A stretch of 64,000 nucleotides of DNA, taken from the NCBI GenBank assembly GCA_035623825.1, contig DASPSR010000052.1, positions 10,699 to 74,698 of the forward strand, given 5' to 3'. The notes under the pieces were generated by a model. It ran no database searches and was not told the DNA's origin. It saw only the letters and a list, made by a program, of their open reading frames with translations. The translations under genes and the position numbers were made by a program. Shown piece after piece: positions 1 to 48,213 of this stretch (positions within the stretch are counted from its first letter, which is position 1; each line of letters begins with the position of its first letter). The DNA comes from Nitrospirota bacterium. Its GTDB lineage: Bacteria; Nitrospirota; UBA9217.

Positions 1-441
1 GACAAAATGGGTAGAATCGCCGAGGCGATCGAGGACTTTGAAATGGCGTTGAGATTAAATATGATGGATCCCGGGACCGTGGCGTGGGCTCATAATAATC
101 TGGGGATTCTCTATGGCAAGGCAGGGATGTACGACCGTTCAATAGCTGAATTCAATATCGCCATTGCGATTGACCCAAACAACCCGATCACGTTTAACAA
201 CCGTGGTTTTGCCTATGCCTATAACGGTCAGGACCGAAAGGCAATAGAGGATTTCACTAAGGCGATTATCCTGGACCAGAACTATGCGAGCGCTTATTTT
301 CAACGGGGTGATGCATACCTAAGAACAGGCAATAAGGAGCTGGCGATTGCAGATTTCCAAAAAGGGTGTGATTTGGGCGACATGTACGCATGTAGCGCAT
401 TGCAAGCCGCACGGATGATAAAGCCACAAAAGGGGAATTGA
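1..441 (+). CDS. TPR-repeat C-terminus of a probable TMTC-like protein (5' end outside window)
   Basis: Frame is open from base 1. It has TPR motifs, and its end (YLRTGNKELAIADFQKGCDLGD) closely matches the end of the downstream TMTC-like gene (YLRTGKRELALRDFQKGCALGD). Confidence 0.75.
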   Translation, partial: DKMGRIAEAIEDFEMALRLNMMDPGTVAWAHNNLGILYGKAGMYDRSIAEFNIAIAIDPNNPITFNNRGFAYAYNGQDRKAIEDFTKAIILDQNYASAYFQRGDAYLRTGNKELAIADFQKGCDLGDMYACSALQAARMIKPQKGN

Positions 442-42785: not shown

Positions 42786-43271
42786 ATGGATGCTCTAGAG
42801 ATAGCGATGAAGATGGAAAAAGACGCAATTACATTCTACAGCGAGGCGGCACGGAAAACGAAATATCCGGCGGGGAAAAAGATGTTCGATACGATCAGTC
42901 AGGACGAGAAGAGGCACTTGGAGATGATCTCAGAAATAATAAAGGGGCTTAATGTCACGCACAAGGACGTGAGCCCCATGAAGAATGTGAGAACCGTCTT
43001 CGAGTCCATGAAGAAGGAGATGATGAAGAAGGTCGAGGCATCCGCCGATGAGCTTGAGGCTTTCAAGATCGCCATGAGGATGGAGCAGGAGGGGATGGAG
43101 TTCTATAAGAAGACTCTTGCCGGAGCCAAAAAAGAGAAGGAAAGGACACTGCTGGAGAGGCTTATTAAAGAGGAGGAGCAGCATTACGCCATCTTCGCGA
43201 ATACTTATCAGTTCCTCGCTGACACCGGAAACTGGTTCCTCTGGGAAGAGCGCGGAATTGTCGAGGGCTGA
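42786..43271 (+). CDS. ferritin-like/rubrerythrin-family protein
   Basis: Duplicated AMKME...FY...DEKRH / AMRME...FY...EEEQH pattern. Confidence 0.88.
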   Translation: MDALEIAMKMEKDAITFYSEAARKTKYPAGKKMFDTISQDEKRHLEMISEIIKGLNVTHKDVSPMKNVRTVFESMKKEMMKKVEASADELEAFKIAMRMEQEGMEFYKKTLAGAKKEKERTLLERLIKEEEQHYAIFANTYQFLADTGNWFLWEERGIVEG

Positions 43272-43389
43272 GTGACGCCTGGATTGCAGAATGCGGATTG
43301 TAAATCACAAAAAACATCGGGGAAGGGAATTTGCGAGCCGACAACCCGGGGTCGGGAATCCCCCATTCTGCATGAGGCAAGGAGGAGCA

Positions 43390-43662
43390 ATGTATACGAT
43401 TGTTGCCTTAAAGGATAAGATTCAGGAAATGTATCCCGAGATCAGGGAGCATAGTCTCTCGATGGGGCTTGACTTTGATGTACAAAAGAACGCCTACATC
43501 ATCACATTTAAGCGGGGCACGGAAGAACTCACTACGCATCTTGAGAAGAAAGACGCTGATGAGTGCATGAATGGCATCAAGTGTGTATACCTCGGGGTCC
43601 AGGTCGAGCAGTTCATCAAAAACTTCGAGGAAAGGAAGGCTTTTGGTAGGAAGGTGGCATGA
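43390..43662 (+). CDS. hypothetical protein with a CxxGxxC motif
   Basis: GGAGG RBS; 90-aa ORF containing DADECMNGIKCVYLGVQ. Confidence 0.7.
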   Translation: MYTIVALKDKIQEMYPEIREHSLSMGLDFDVQKNAYIITFKRGTEELTTHLEKKDADECMNGIKCVYLGVQVEQFIKNFEERKAFGRKVA

Positions 43663-43789
43663 ACTGCCATGCGGCCATGAAGCCGGGAGACTGCCATCAT
43701 GTGCTCCCGCGGCGCCAGGTTCTGCCGTCGCTGTTGAGCTTGTAAGGAAACAGAAAGGGGTTTGAACCGGTTCCTCTCGTCATGAACAA

Positions 43790-43820
43790 CAAGAAAGCCT
43801 GGGAAGGTCTTCCCAGGCTC
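43790..43820 (-). terminator. intrinsic terminator after the precursor peptide
   Basis: Minus strand GCCTGGGAA-GACC-TTCCCAGGC followed by TTTCTT. Confidence 0.7.
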
Positions 43821-43856
43821 TCGCGTTTTTGAAGTGATGCCGCGCTCAAGGATTGC

Positions 43857-43919
43857 TCAGCAGGAGCTTTTGCACTTGCACGTTGTTGCCATTTTCTTCG
43901 AAACCTTCCTGATCGTCAT
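43857..43919 (-). CDS. putative RiPP precursor peptide MTIRKVSKKMATTCKCKSSC (20 aa)
   Basis: Strong AAAGGAGGT RBS; 68 bp downstream of, and co-oriented with, an rSAM/SPASM gene; basic leader plus CxCxxxC core; terminator follows. Confidence 0.8.
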   Translation of the reverse strand: MTIRKVSKKMATTCKCKSSC

Positions 43920-43987
43920 AAGACACCTCCTTTCCAAAGCTATTCCTTCAGTCCGATATGATTTTTTCATCATCTACTGTCAAAAAG

Positions 43988-45130
43988 TCATGCTTTATCG
44001 TTTATTATACCATAAAGAGCGCATCTGTACGGATCTCTCCCGCGGGGTCCTTCAATCAGCTCGGCCCGGTAACGGCATCCTCCCCGGCAGGCTTCGATGA
44101 ACTCGCAATCGCATGCCAGATCTTTGAGCAGAACGGGCTGGATCCTCTGCCAGGATGACCGGAGCCCCTGGTCAACTGTTCCTGCGGTGCGGTCCCCGTA
44201 AAACGTACATTTTGCAACATTCCCGTTCGCCATCACGGACACCAGGTGCAAGCCGCATGCGTACCCCGTTCCTGATGCGTGGACGCCGCCGCCGTAACCG
44301 TATCCAAGGTATCTCCCTCCCTCTTCCGGATTTACCCAGAATTCAGCGTTTTCCCTTAGTCTCCCCGAGGCGCAGGGAACATCAACGGTCCACTCCTTGA
44401 TACCCAATCGTTTAAACAAATGCTCCATCTCGTCGAAATCACGGAGATTCCTTTGGTGAACCATAGTAGATATCGAAACATTAAAGCCCGAGTCCAAGGA
44501 GTTTTTCACGGCATCCAGGGCGCATCGGTACGTCCCATTGCCCCGTAGCGCATCGTGGGCCGCTTCGAGCCCGTCGATACTGACCTGTATCTCGTCGACC
44601 TTAAGCATTTTGAGGATTTCTTTCCGCAGGAGCATGCCGTTCGTGAACAGTGCTTTTCTGATTGAATAGTCTGGGAGCACTTCATTTATAGCCTCGAAGT
44701 TTCCATGGAGCAGCGGCTCCCCTCCCGTAATCATCACCCTCAGGCCCTGCATATCTTCAAATTCACTCAGGACATTCCGGATTTGCGTGAGAGAAAGCTC
44801 ATGGGAGGCGCCATCACCTATATAGCAGTGTCTGCACCGGAGATTGCATGCGTTCGTGATCTGGAGCTCGAGATACCGAAGGGAGGGTACAGGTGCTTGT
44901 ATCAGGAGAGGCCTTTTTACAGTCACCTGTTCAGTCGTAAGCAGCCCCTCTTCAACACAGTAATCGATGAATGCGCTGTCCTTCGATGCGCACCCACTTT
45001 TCGAGGCGCAGCTTTTCATAAAGCTGAACGAATCGGCATCGAGTTCATAGAGCTCATCCTTCGCCATGTGATATATCGAGGGCGTTTCGAGCCATTTCAG
45101 AACGGCCTTCCGCGCCAGATAATAATTCAT
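43988..45130 (-). CDS. radical SAM/SPASM peptide maturase with a probable N-terminal RRE
   Basis: CNLRCRHC, TGGEPL, SIDG...HDALRG; SPASM-type C..C..CDC-x5-CRGGC..C; ~80-aa N-terminal extension ending EEGLL. Confidence 0.9.
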   Translation of the reverse strand: MNYYLARKAVLKWLETPSIYHMAKDELYELDADSFSFMKSCASKSGCASKDSAFIDYCVEEGLLTTEQVTVKRPLLIQAPVPSLRYLELQITNACNLRCRHCYIGDGASHELSLTQIRNVLSEFEDMQGLRVMITGGEPLLHGNFEAINEVLPDYSIRKALFTNGMLLRKEILKMLKVDEIQVSIDGLEAAHDALRGNGTYRCALDAVKNSLDSGFNVSISTMVHQRNLRDFDEMEHLFKRLGIKEWTVDVPCASGRLRENAEFWVNPEEGGRYLGYGYGGGVHASGTGYACGLHLVSVMANGNVAKCTFYGDRTAGTVDQGLRSSWQRIQPVLLKDLACDCEFIEACRGGCRYRAELIEGPRGRDPYRCALYGIINDKA

Positions 45131-45177
45131 GCCTTTTATTATAGCACCGCGTCCTGATTTTTTGTTATAATGAACCC

Positions 45178-45507
45178 ATGAAAAAGAAAGCTCCCCTCAT
45201 TAAAACGCTTTGTTTAAAATATTGCTCATACTTCAAGCCGGACAAGAACGAAAAGCTCGCCTGTAGAGGCTATCATGTTGTGGAACGATTAATGCAGGCG
45301 GGCACGTCTGTCACCTTGGGAAAAACTGGAATTTCCGCCGATACAAAGGTCACGGGTCAGCTGGTCCAAGCCCTCTGCAGCGCCTGTCCCTTTCATGAGC
45401 ACGACTGCGATTTCTTCCACGACCTGGTATCGAACCCCTGCGGCGGATTCATGCTACTGTCGCAGCTTCTCGGATCGGGGCGAATCACGATTGACGAGAT
45501 AAAATAA
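45178..45507 (+). CDS. Cys-rich (7 Cys) hypothetical metal/Fe-S-binding protein
   Basis: CLKYC..ACRG and CSACPF..DCDF..PCGG; divergent from the rSAM gene. Confidence 0.7.
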   Translation: MKKKAPLIKTLCLKYCSYFKPDKNEKLACRGYHVVERLMQAGTSVTLGKTGISADTKVTGQLVQALCSACPFHEHDCDFFHDLVSNPCGGFMLLSQLLGSGRITIDEIK

Positions 45508-45653
45508 AAAATGCTTCGCTAAACGTGCAGAGAATGCAGCCTTAAAGGCCGCGGCTCTCGATCAGCTGGCATGTTATATTCGCGGTATACGGCTCCGCAG
45601 GCCCAAACGCGCTCCAGCCTGCCGCGTCAATGACGTTCAATTAAGAGGCAGTC

Positions 45654-47384
45654 ATGGACTACACCATCAAAATCGGCGGTGAGGCGGGGCAGGGTATTCA
45701 GACCATCGGCGATACCCTCGCGCGCGTCTTCTCGCGCACGGGCTGCCATGTGTTCAGCCATCAGGACTACGAGTCACGCATCCGCGGAGGCCACAATTTT
45801 TACCAGATCAGGCTTTCGAACAAACCGATATCCTCCTCGAGGGACAGGATTGACATTATCGTGGCGCTAGACCAGGAGAGCATCAAGCGCCATGAGCGCG
45901 AGATCACAGAACGCGGCCGGATCATCTACGACGCATCGACACTCAAGATGAAATACGACAAGCAGCCCTTTCTCGACATCCCCTTTGCTGACCTCGCCAT
46001 GCAGACCGGAGGGAGCCGGATCATGGCGAACACGGTCGCCACGGGGGCTGTGCTCGGCATGCTCGGGATGGATCTCTCACCCTTCCTCGACATCATAAGC
46101 GAGACCTTCCGAAAAAAAGGCGACGACGTTATCATCGCGAACAAGAACGCTGCGCTCGCGGGATACGATTATGCGATTAAAAATTGCACACGGTGCCCGT
46201 TCTCAGTCGTTGCCGATGCTTCTGCCCGGCCGAAGATGCTCATCGGGGGCGTCGAGGCCATCGGGCTCGGCGCAGTCGCATCGGGATGTAAGTTCTATTC
46301 CGCATACCCCATGACGCCGTCAACGGGGATTATGAACTACCTCGCGACAAAAGAGAAGGAGAACGGCATTGTGGTTGAGCAGGCGGAGGACGAGATCGCT
46401 GCGATCAACATGTCACTCGGAGCATCATTTGCGGGCGTGCGGTCGATGACCGGAACGTCGGGCGGCGGTTTTGCGCTCATGGTCGAAGGACTTTCGCTCG
46501 CGGCAATGACCGAGACGCCGATCGTGATTGCGCTAGGGCAGCGACCGGGGCCTGCCACGGGATTTCCCACGAGGACCGAGCAGGGCGAGCTTCAGTTCGT
46601 GCTCTCCGCTGGACATGGTGAGTTCCCCCGCGCGGTTTTCTCCCCGGGGACGCCTCGGCAAGCGATCTACCTCACAAACAAGGCCTTCGACCTGGCGGAG
46701 AGATATCAGATCCCGACCTTCATCCTTTTCGACACCTACCTCGCCGATTCCCAGTGGACCTTCGACGGTATCGACGTGAGCAGGCTAAGGTATGTCGATT
46801 ACCGGCTACGGGGTGATGCGTTCAGGCAGGTTGCGGAGTACAGGCGCCATGCCTTTACCGGGAGCGGGGTTTCGCCCTTCGGCGTGCCAGGAGACGCCGA
46901 ACACCTTGTGGTCACCGACAGCGATGAGCACGATGAAGAGGGCCATATCGTGGAAGACGCGACCACGCGGGTGAAGATGGTGCAGAAGCGGCTGCTCAAG
47001 AAGCTCTCGTTGATCAGGGGGGAAATCGCCCCGCCTTTCGTCTACGGCGACCATAGGCCCGCCATCGTGATTGCGGGCTGGGGTTCGACGTACGGCGTCA
47101 TGAAAGAGGCGGTGGACGAGCTTTCGAAATCCCAGCGCATTGCCATGCTTCACTTCAGTGAACTTTTCCCTTTTCCGCAAAGGGAGCGGTTCGACTATGT
47201 TCAGCTCCTGCAGAATGCGAAACACACGATGTGCATAGAAAACAATGCAACGGGTCAGTTTAGCCGGCTCATGAGGGCTGAGACAGGATACGAGTTCACA
47301 CGACACATACGCAAATTCGACGGCAGGCCGTTCACGCTCGAGACGCTGGCAGGAGAGATCAATGGTTACCTTAGAAAGCTATAG
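45654..47384 (+). CDS. korA: 2-oxoacid:ferredoxin oxidoreductase alpha (gamma-alpha fusion) subunit
   Basis: GGEAGQGI, YESRIRGGHN, AYPMTPST, QRPGPATGFPT. Confidence 0.9.
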   Translation: MDYTIKIGGEAGQGIQTIGDTLARVFSRTGCHVFSHQDYESRIRGGHNFYQIRLSNKPISSSRDRIDIIVALDQESIKRHEREITERGRIIYDASTLKMKYDKQPFLDIPFADLAMQTGGSRIMANTVATGAVLGMLGMDLSPFLDIISETFRKKGDDVIIANKNAALAGYDYAIKNCTRCPFSVVADASARPKMLIGGVEAIGLGAVASGCKFYSAYPMTPSTGIMNYLATKEKENGIVVEQAEDEIAAINMSLGASFAGVRSMTGTSGGGFALMVEGLSLAAMTETPIVIALGQRPGPATGFPTRTEQGELQFVLSAGHGEFPRAVFSPGTPRQAIYLTNKAFDLAERYQIPTFILFDTYLADSQWTFDGIDVSRLRYVDYRLRGDAFRQVAEYRRHAFTGSGVSPFGVPGDAEHLVVTDSDEHDEEGHIVEDATTRVKMVQKRLLKKLSLIRGEIAPPFVYGDHRPAIVIAGWGSTYGVMKEAVDELSKSQRIAMLHFSELFPFPQRERFDYVQLLQNAKHTMCIENNATGQFSRLMRAETGYEFTRHIRKFDGRPFTLETLAGEINGYLRKL

Positions 47385-48213
47385 AGGGCAGGTCCCGGCG
47401 TGGTGCCCGGGGTGCGGAAACTTTCCGATCCTCAGCGCCTTCAAGGATGTAATGGTCGAGCTGGGCATGGAGCCCCACCAGTTCACCGTGGTATCGGGCA
47501 TTGGCCAGGCAGCGAAACTCCCTCATTATACCAGATGCAACACCTTTAACGGACTTCACGGAAGAACGCTGCCGGTGGCCACCGGAATCAGACTTGCGAA
47601 CCACAAGATGCCGGTGATCGTCGTGACCGGCGACGGCGATTGCTACGGCGAGGGGGGCAACCATCTCATGGCCGCTATGCGAAGAAACATCAACGTGAAG
47701 CTCTTCGTGCATGACAACCAGATCTACGGCCTGACCAAGGGGCAGCCTTCCCCCACCACCGGCGAGGGCATGGTGACCAAGAACATGCCCTACGGAGTCA
47801 TCTCAGAGCAGTTCAATCCCATGGTGCTCGCTGTAGCACTCGATTGCAGCTTCGCCGCCCGGGGGTTCGCTGCCGACACGGACCATCTCAAATCCCTCAT
47901 GAAAGCGGCAATCAAGCACAATGGCTTCGCCATCGTCGACATCCTCCAGCCCTGCGTGACGTACAATAAGGTGAACACCTACGAATGGTATCGTCAGCGA
48001 GTATATCATATCGGGCCGGACCATGACCCTGAGGACCGGAAGGCAGCGTTCAGCAAAGCGACCGAATGGGGCGATCGGATCCCGATCGGCATCATATACC
48101 GCAACAGCCGTCCGACGTTCGAGGAGCAGGTACCAATGATCGCCGGCAATCCGCTTGTGCACCAGGCCTTCGATGTAACGAAGATTCAAGAGGCGATCAA
48201 GGAATTTTATTAA
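47362..48213 (+). CDS. korB: 2-oxoacid:ferredoxin oxidoreductase beta subunit
   Basis: WCPGCGN, GDGD TPP motif, YGLTKGQPSPT. Confidence 0.9.
   Translation: MVTLESYRGQVPAWCPGCGNFPILSAFKDVMVELGMEPHQFTVVSGIGQAAKLPHYTRCNTFNGLHGRTLPVATGIRLANHKMPVIVVTGDGDCYGEGGNHLMAAMRRNINVKLFVHDNQIYGLTKGQPSPTTGEGMVTKNMPYGVISEQFNPMVLAVALDCSFAARGFAADTDHLKSLMKAAIKHNGFAIVDILQPCVTYNKVNTYEWYRQRVYHIGPDHDPEDRKAAFSKATEWGDRIPIGIIYRNSRPTFEEQVPMIAGNPLVHQAFDVTKIQEAIKEFY

Follow-up and report, generated by a model that had tools for sequence, protein, structure and literature searches.

The described systems closest to the locus analysed here pair a radical S-adenosylmethionine (rSAM) enzyme with a small precursor peptide. SCIFF systems (CteA/CteB, Tte1186a/Tte1186) combine an rSAM/SPASM enzyme carrying a fused N-terminal recognition element (RRE) with a short Cys-rich peptide, and they are widely conserved in an anaerobe lineage without an adjacent protease or exporter. 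SuiB and SuiA yield streptide, which has a Lys-Trp crosslink, and in their solved complex (5v1t) the RRE holds the leader. SkfB, which carries a Twitch domain in place of a full SPASM domain, acts on SkfA to give the Cys-Met thioether of the sporulation killing factor. In the pyrroloquinoline quinone (PQQ; PqqE/PqqD/PqqA) and mycofactocin (MftC/MftB/MftA) pathways, which make redox cofactors from peptides, a tiny, strongly conserved precursor with invariant C-terminal residues reaches its rSAM/SPASM enzyme via an RRE, and the cell uses the product internally. Here we describe a 20-codon gene that directly follows an rSAM/SPASM enzyme gene in a 64,000-nt stretch (the window) of a Nitrospirota bacterium, contig DASPSR010000052.1. 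We put the probability that this peptide is the dedicated substrate of the adjacent enzyme at about 0.7.

The window locus shares features with each of these systems. Like SCIFF systems, it couples an rSAM/SPASM enzyme with a fused N-terminal RRE to a short Cys-rich peptide, and CteB matches the enzyme model at Z 23.7 (root-mean-square deviation (rmsd) 3.1, 280 residues aligned). Unlike SCIFF, the peptide has 20 residues instead of ~45 and 3 Cys instead of 6, and it comes from Nitrospirota instead of Clostridia; we know of no shorter rSAM precursor. The initial annotation of this DNA had likened the peptide to SCIFF ranthipeptides, and membership in that family found no support: the peptide matches 0 NCBIfam families at E values up to 10, neither the SCIFF peptide model nor the maturase model recognizes the pair, and the enzyme lies far below every cut-off among the 25 matches listed. 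SuiB is the best whole-structure match (Z 26.4, rmsd 4.1, 354 residues), aligning model residues 2..375 to chain residues 1..439, RRE included, at 16% identity. Because the window peptide has invariant Lys residues and no Trp, we expect a crosslink other than SuiB's.

SkfB is the closest solved protein by sequence (E 7.1e-21) and matches by structure at Z 26.0, next to anSME at 23.8 and ChlB at 22.3; the top structural matches of the enzyme are peptide-modifying rSAM enzymes. Unlike the window system, SkfB and SkfA belong to an operon with export and immunity genes that makes a secreted toxin. PqqD aligns with the N-terminal domain at Z 5.4 and rmsd 2.1, and PqqE with the enzyme at Z 19.9. The PQQ and mycofactocin pathways are the closest analogy for how the system may be used, although PqqB/C/F and MftD/E/F are not seen here and the core offers Cys, Lys and Ser in place of Glu and Tyr or Val and Tyr. 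Against the NCBIfam MftC model the enzyme scores 92 bits, with a cut-off of 265. The module comprises the following features.

43988..45130, minus strand: radical SAM/SPASM enzyme gene, 380 aa (P0001), from the open reading frame, the Pfam Radical_SAM match and an AlphaFold2 model
43857..43919, minus strand: 20-codon peptide gene encoding MTIRKVSKKMATTCKCKSSC, stop included, conserved in relatives
43925..43933, minus strand: Shine-Dalgarno sequence AAAGGAGGT of the peptide gene, read from the sequence
43793..43822, minus strand: intrinsic terminator after the peptide gene, a 13-bp stem with a U-rich tail, supported by folding energy
44906..45130, minus strand: predicted RRE-like (PqqD-type winged-helix) N-terminal domain, residues 1 to ~75, from fold comparison
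44825..44848, minus strand: CxxxCxxC motif for the radical SAM cluster (C95, C99, C102), invariant in 53/53 aligned relatives
44021..44257, minus strand: SPASM-type auxiliary-cluster Cys array (C292, C308, C340, C342, C348, C352, C370), from the alignment
44004..44012, minus strand: extended -10-like element TGGTATAAT, from its motif a candidate promoter of the peptide gene's own
45178..45507, plus strand: divergent gene for a seven-Cys 109-aa protein, a recurrent neighbour and candidate third component

Conservation and co-inheritance of the 20-codon gene

The peptide gene is a compact unit with its own translation and termination signals. Its open reading frame (ORF) runs from an ATG at 43919 to a stop at 43857-43859, exactly 68 nt separate the rSAM stop from that ATG, and a 6-nt spacer lies between the GGAGG of its strong ribosome-binding site and the start. 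An in-frame 38-aa alternative beginning at 43973 has no such ribosome-binding site, and relatives retain the 19-20-aa form only. The terminator stem is followed by UUUCUUGUUGUU and folds at -26.2 kcal/mol (z -5.7), a stability equalled by 0/200 shuffles. The initial annotation had placed a ribosome-binding site and an ORF 68 bp past the rSAM gene on the same strand, with an intrinsic terminator behind them and no transporter or protease gene adjacent; all of this agrees with what we find, as no transporter-like or protease-like product is evident among the nine translated neighbouring ORFs. This genome has one copy each of the rSAM gene and the peptide gene.

The ORF recurs beside homologous enzyme genes and varies as a coding sequence does. 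A scan for relatives of the enzyme, limited to one genome per species, gave 483 loci, of which the best 80 were kept; 79 of these are labelled Nitrospirota-type. Directly after the rSAM gene, 68 of the 80 loci carry an ORF that fits the pattern M-[TKS]-I-[KR]-K-V-x-K-K-x-x-x-T-C-K-C-K-[SNG]-S-C. Among the remaining 12, one contig ends inside the ORF (L070), one flank spans only 149 nt (L068) and ten loci have no ORF. The 88 peptide copies that we collected comprise 59 distinct 20-mers and 80 distinct 63-nt sequences. Eight residues are invariant over the distinct 20-mers (M1, I3, K5, C14, C16, K17, S19 and C20), and T13 and K15 are each kept in 58 of 59. A GGAGG- or GGGGG-type site lies upstream of every listed start, and length is fixed at 19-20 codons.

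Over the 80 distinct nucleotide sequences, mean column entropy in bits is 0.45 for first, 0.38 for second and 1.22 for third codon positions, so that third positions are about three times as variable as first and second. The same pattern holds in N-terminal codons outside the constraint of the search pattern, codon 3 for example giving 0/0/1.23. Because it recurs in 68 of 80 loci with a coding-type substitution pattern, the 20-codon ORF is more than a chance reading frame; judged by these alignments, it is a gene with the signature of translation under strong purifying selection. The prediction that homologous rSAM genes would be followed by a similar peptide thus stands, and it extends to distant relatives.

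Enzyme and peptide genes are retained together across the phylum. We sampled 401 Nitrospirota genomes evenly across it, counting the enzyme at E 1e-60 or better and the peptide by the DNA pattern C-K-C-K-x-[S/T/C/R/W]-C-stop. The enzyme occurs in 162 genomes, one copy each, and the peptide pattern in 156, with 0 matches to a reversed control pattern in all genomes. Per-genome rows tally to 154 genomes with both, 8 with the enzyme only, 2 with the pattern only (G154, G361) and 237 with neither, counts that run over related genomes and are not independent evidence. Two of the enzyme-only genomes have variant tails (G257, ...TCTCKSSC; G315, ...TCKCHSSC), another belongs to the same genus as G315 (G373), one is fragmented (G107), and in two the contig stops beside the gene (G011, G038). 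Families f9 (0/76), f10 (0/28) and f17 (0/40) have neither gene, and in the mixed families f3, f11, f13, f18, f20, f24 and f26 both genes are missing from the same genomes.

Co-retention persists where the two genes have separated. At more distant Nitrospirota loci from the phylum sample, the peptide adjoins the rSAM gene in 11 of 20; where it does not, the pattern was located elsewhere in the genome in 5/5 and 4/5 of the genomes tested. The unlinked peptide gene stands alone in varied neighbourhoods, is 19-20 codons long and has a ribosome-binding site and often also a terminator of its own; its co-retention after unlinking is hard to explain without shared function. Two further pattern matches were false, lying out of frame within another gene.

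The pairing also reaches distant branches of the enzyme family. With sequences clustered at 50%, the enzyme is matched by 98 clusters at E 1e-30 or better. Distant members then served as seeds for a metagenome scan. Of the 31 loci examined from it, 20 have a downstream peptide ending ...CKCK[A/V/G/S/N]SC; of the other 11, one breaks off after MTI, two have flanks that are too short, and in eight the peptide is absent. The peptide is present in nine of the ten loci L132-L141, whose rSAM proteins are only 42-46% identical to the window enzyme, and its start or ribosome-binding site there often overlaps the rSAM stop. The enzyme has therefore diverged to ~45% identity while the tail stayed C-K-C-K-x-S-C. 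Source names of distant rSAM relatives are confined to Thermodesulfobacteriota, Chloroflexota and Nitrospirota, a range that outside Nitrospirota comes from few names, and a cluster look-up of ten distant representatives gave a single name, Thermodesulfovibrio (sp. metagenome-assembled genomes, MAGs).

A search of this genome and five others for sister peptides ending C-K-C-x-x-S-C gave no further matches except ones lying out of frame within other genes. In genome G029 the peptide occurs a second time as a divergent copy, MNIKKVIKVSTGLCKCKSSC (L215:2939-3001 (-)), which stands alone with a TetR-like regulator gene before it and a glyoxalase-like gene behind it. In family f2 (L213:3-3004, L214:786-3178), a cysteine desulfurase-like gene and then a NifU/IscU-like gene, both named by sequence reading, precede the rSAM gene, and a peptide ending CKCKESC comes after it.

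These patterns also bear on a regulatory role, in which the small ORF would encode a leader peptide, act as an attenuator that senses Cys or Lys, or merely belong to a conserved RNA element, with a product that has no function of its own. Such a role would suit the strong terminator after the ORF, and it would suit 32 of the 88 loci, picked by eye, whose 5' untranslated regions (UTRs) hold two covarying hairpins, the second masking the ribosome-binding site. Yet the amino acids are conserved while third codon positions vary, and an attenuator would not follow an rSAM gene from genome to genome where the two are unlinked; we regard this explanation as extremely improbable. Attenuation was rejected as a candidate because the genes downstream of stand-alone peptide copies differ between genomes.

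The alignment of the 32 loci (A7), chosen for showing the motif, has two hairpins with A-U/C-G-A-A loops, compensatory changes in all 10 pairs and 87.5% of cells paired against 75.8% when shuffled (0/500 shuffles reach it), and slid registers score lower. It includes L112:1558-1635 (-), L113:1390-1467, L048:5114-5191 and 29 more loci, with three hairpins in L112 and L113. The twin-hairpin UTR may be a protein- or ligand-controlled translational switch. In the window itself, the 5' UTR folds no better than shuffles (z -0.99) and the twin hairpin is not evident. Rfam gave only sub-threshold chance matches within 43300-45800, and only one tRNA across six related loci.

Of the 88 loci, 58 have the motif TGnTAnnnT at 45-115 nt upstream from the peptide start (53/79 linked, 5/9 unlinked) against 105 of 1760 control windows, a signal confounded at linked loci by coding for ...YGII. 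The window's TGGTATAAT is a perfect extended -10 inside the last rSAM codons, and the peptide may have its own promoter, with a transcript start predicted near 43997, and a ~200-nt transcript; a consensus promoter scan found no two-hexamer promoter for it. Contigs from two metatranscriptome runs cover portions of the rSAM gene and of the convergent neighbour, none of them covers the peptide ORF, and they could be DNA carry-over.

Enzyme architecture and the modelled complex

The enzyme combines a canonical rSAM core with a SPASM-type Cys array. Its only Pfam match is Radical_SAM (PF04055; residues 90-237, E 8.4e-22, 78.5 bits against a cut-off of 29.5), which begins at residue 90 and so agrees with the N-terminal extension of ~80 aa in the initial annotation. 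The CxxxCxxC motif reported there, C95-x3-C99-x2-C102, is invariant in 53 of 53 relatives. In this superfamily the motif holds the SAM-cleaving 4Fe-4S cluster within a partial TIM barrel, and here the barrel is modelled with a per-residue confidence (pLDDT) above 95. The SPASM motif reads CX9-15GX4C, gap, CX2CX5CX3C, gap, C, and serves two auxiliary clusters. The C-terminal array here, C292-x10-G303-x4-C308, C340-x-C342-x5-C348-x3-C352 and C370, has all seven Cys, and CxC is its sole deviation. Every Cys from C292 to C352 is invariant in 53/53 relatives and C370 is kept in 52/53; an eighth, C253, occurs in 29/53. The CxC that had been singled out is real in the window enzyme, but in the wider family it is one of several spacings, as the first pair of the second Cys group is CxxC or CxxxC in more distant relatives. 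Structural alignment places the array region on the SPASM domains of anSME (model 79..378) and of CteB. An N-terminal triad, C41, C47 and C58, was considered as an extra cluster site and rejected as a family feature because these positions are Cys in only 28, 16 and 34 of the 53 relatives.

Existing family models place the enzyme among rSAM proteins without naming it. NCBIfam returns 79 families that match via the shared core only (residues ~85-270), the best at 95 bits against cut-offs of 265-850, and the enzyme reaches the cut-off of no named rSAM peptide maturase (MftC, WgkB, ScmE/F, AlbA, SkfB, StsB and others). Two Atlas searches returned own-family or generic rSAM clusters only. In neighbouring Atlas clusters, 28-92% of members carry the Pfam SPASM model PF13186.

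Structure prediction identifies the N-terminus as a likely peptide-binding domain of the RRE type. The RRE fold is a winged helix-turn-helix, three strands in a sheet and then helices, to which the leader binds as one more strand. The AlphaFold2 model of the enzyme, built from 53 relatives, has pLDDT 93.7 and a predicted template-modelling score (pTM) of 0.92. Modelled alone (pLDDT 85.7), the N-terminal 88 residues form four strands followed by two helices. Compared with 48,161 chains (without Foldseek), this domain best matches the TigE N-terminus and TbiB1 at Z 7.1, TbiB1 with rmsd 2.2 over 63 residues. Lasso B1 (6.9), MibB (5.9), ThcOx and PqqD (5.4) and the PbtF RRE (5.0) come next, and NisB, McbB, SuiB, MccB and LynD lie lower. 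Foldseek likewise puts TbiB1 first (E 0.1, probability 0.98). RRE-bearing proteins thus head the structural list, as expected from the PqqD-like fold anticipated in the initial annotation, and by this fold comparison the N-terminus is predicted to be an RRE-like, PqqD-type winged-helix domain.

Docking places the peptide across this domain and the active site. We modelled the enzyme with three 4Fe-4S clusters, SAM and the peptide, supplying an alignment for each protein. The interface score ipSAE had a median of 0.85 (0.85, 0.88, 0.83) against 0.02 for the best of 3 controls, a score outside the tool's calibration for a partner of <30 residues and user alignments. Among solved complexes, 58 of 80 reach this docking mark, as do 2 of 110 mismatched pairs. 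Runs had at least 64% of contacts in common, and partner pLDDT was at least 62. In the model, peptide residues 2-6 pair with enzyme residues 26-31, which form the RRE sheet's last strand, and touch residues 54, 57, 58 and 61, Ile3 being in contact with 54, 57 and 58; predicted RRE contacts extend over peptide residues 1-6. Residues 8-20 contact the barrel and SPASM region (85-88, 131-133, 160-162, 219-223, 246-250, 280-296, 308-310 and 347-352). The leader placement in this model is the canonical RRE mode.

The seven-Cys protein and the substrate assignment

A seven-Cys protein is a recurrent partner of the enzyme family. Its 109-aa gene is adjacent and divergent to the rSAM gene in 66 of 80 loci, and its invariants are C12, C16, C29, C67, C70, C77, C88 and a PCGG motif. 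Across the 401 phylum genomes it occurs in 148, with distant-family matches near threshold: 142 also have the enzyme, 6 have the protein alone and 20 have the enzyme without it. Neither the 109-aa protein nor a 123-aa neighbour belongs to a Pfam or NCBIfam family.

This near-identical phyletic pattern raises an alternative assignment, in which the seven-Cys protein, or another protein, is the true rSAM substrate or obligate partner and the peptide is a real but unmodified small protein of the same pathway, for example a metal or sulfur carrier or a helper. Divergent adjacency in most loci fits that assignment, as does a peptide-less sub-branch in which the 109-aa gene overlaps the rSAM start codon (L151:2125-3664, L156:2127-3649, L152:137-1649); rSAM/SPASM enzymes that crosslink whole proteins are known (PMC13692751). 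In distant genomes, however, the 109-aa gene sits away from the rSAM gene, directly after a CutA-like gene (named by sequence reading), while the peptide often stays by the rSAM gene, and in the docking model the peptide's leader rests on the RRE with its tail reaching into the active site. We consider the alternative unlikely and retain the peptide as the probable substrate.

Further neighbours recur around these genes. In L120:2243-2859, L121:2242-2858, L122:2182-2804, L124:2499-3115 and L126:2484-3121 the 109-aa gene overlaps a 104-aa CutA-like gene. CutA-like (divalent-cation tolerance) neighbours in Thermodesulfovibrio-like and other distant genomes, again named by sequence reading, hint at metal handling. 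A methyltransferase-like gene follows the rSAM gene in L151 and in the truncated locus L163. The module's flanks (42786-43662 (+) and 45654-48213 (+)) carry a rubrerythrin-type gene in 45/80 loci and a 123-aa ORF in 28/80. A two-subunit pair resembling 2-oxoacid:ferredoxin oxidoreductase, a name from sequence reading, flanks the module in 39/80 and 36/80 loci. All of these flanking genes may reflect plain synteny among relatives.

Gene neighbourhoods and conservation also speak to export. The enzyme class and Cys-rich core resemble sactipeptide and ranthipeptide systems, and in family f2 (L212, L217) a set of genes resembling an ATP-binding cassette (ABC)-type exporter, named by sequence reading, is convergent to the peptide gene; the peptide could on that account be a secreted antimicrobial, a sactipeptide-like bacteriocin and thus a peptide made by ribosomes and modified after its translation (RiPP), directed outward. 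The core is nonetheless near-invariant across families whose rSAM proteins are only ~45% identical, both genes have a single-copy, core-like distribution, and the pair has no recurring companion gene for a protease, for immunity or for export. A bacteriocin role is accordingly very unlikely.

Several observations weigh against the peptide as dedicated substrate of the enzyme. Two near-complete genomes, G188 (98% complete) and G197 (100%), keep the rSAM gene, and we detected in them neither peptide nor seven-Cys protein. In the distant rSAM sub-branch L151, L152 and L156 (35-39% identity) no CKCK peptide lies downstream, and since the 109-aa gene there overlaps the rSAM start, the enzyme family can work with another partner. 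The co-occurrence counts share the ancestry of the genomes behind them. RRE-fold Z-scores are modest (at most 7.1), yet RRE enrichment at the top of the list is clear. The Pfam PqqD model has no match, residues 1-89 match no Pfam family at E up to 10, and PF13186 fails to match either the whole protein (E 0.01) or the C-terminal 130 residues (E 10). NCBIfam likewise has no family for either of these terminal segments. Besides falling outside calibration, the docking pass may reflect likeness only, because solved RRE-leader complexes such as SuiB-SuiA exist. The thioether chemistry proposed below is a guess by analogy. Genomes G188 and G197 (L127, L128) belong to the window's own family, with rSAM proteins 58-62% identical, and could hold a partner-free enzyme or decay in progress.

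Proposed chemistry, novelty and meaning

If the peptide is the substrate, modification would proceed in a few steps. The basic N-terminus, M-T/K-I-K/R-K-V..., would act as a very short leader of 13 residues, adding a beta-strand to the fused RRE. The invariant C-terminal heptad C-K-C-K-x-S-C would then pass into the barrel, with the SAM cluster on one side and the two auxiliary clusters on the other, where a 5'-deoxyadenosyl radical would abstract hydrogen to form one or more intramolecular crosslinks. Our best guess for the crosslink is a Cys thioether to a neighbouring Lys, Ser or Thr carbon. In sactipeptides the Cys sulfur is joined to an acceptor residue's alpha carbon, in ranthipeptides to its beta or gamma carbon. 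Thioether formation, by analogy with SkfB, CteB and similar enzymes, is a tentative choice to which we give somewhat less than even odds; a Lys-centred crosslink as in SuiB or Cys/Ser oxidation as in anSME is also possible.

Most likely the product acts intracellularly, as a small peptide that binds metal, is redox-active or resembles a cofactor. This assessment follows from a core that is near-invariant throughout a whole class of anaerobes, the single-copy core-gene distribution and the lack of recurring protease, exporter and immunity genes. The intracellular role suggested by the initial annotation fits the neighbourhoods examined, and the role itself is a proposal. The peptide would possibly act together with the co-inherited seven-Cys protein. 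A more specific idea, doubtful at present, takes the Cys-Lys heptad, once crosslinked, to be a new prosthetic group or metal/redox cofactor that strict anaerobes derive from a ribosomal product. Two genes would form the minimal pathway for making it, and the seven-Cys protein would use it or be loaded with it. If so, it would be a third peptide-derived cofactor system beside PQQ and mycofactocin.

The family models and papers searched contain no earlier description of this family. The peptide has no Pfam or NCBIfam model and no model names the enzyme family; 10 peptide sequences looked up were absent from ~15 billion predicted proteins. Literature outside subscription journals held no paper with the tail strings and none combining Thermodesulfovibrio, radical SAM and RiPP. 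Broader rSAM-RiPP searches brought up general papers, none naming the enzyme family or the peptide in the passages they returned. Passages of PMC10288494 mention neither Nitrospir- nor Thermodesulfovibrio, and its supplementary list of ~15,000 enzymes could contain the family.

A 20-codon gene below the limit of gene callers is conserved like a housekeeping gene across anaerobic Nitrospirota, a class of gene that annotation pipelines systematically overlook. If the pairing holds, peptide and enzyme would define a new family of rSAM-modified peptides with an unusually short 13-residue leader and a compact model for RRE recognition. The system would be directly testable, with a homologue named from Thermodesulfovibrio sp. 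MAGs. It would also point to an unknown thiol, metal or redox physiology in sulfate-reducing and related anaerobes.

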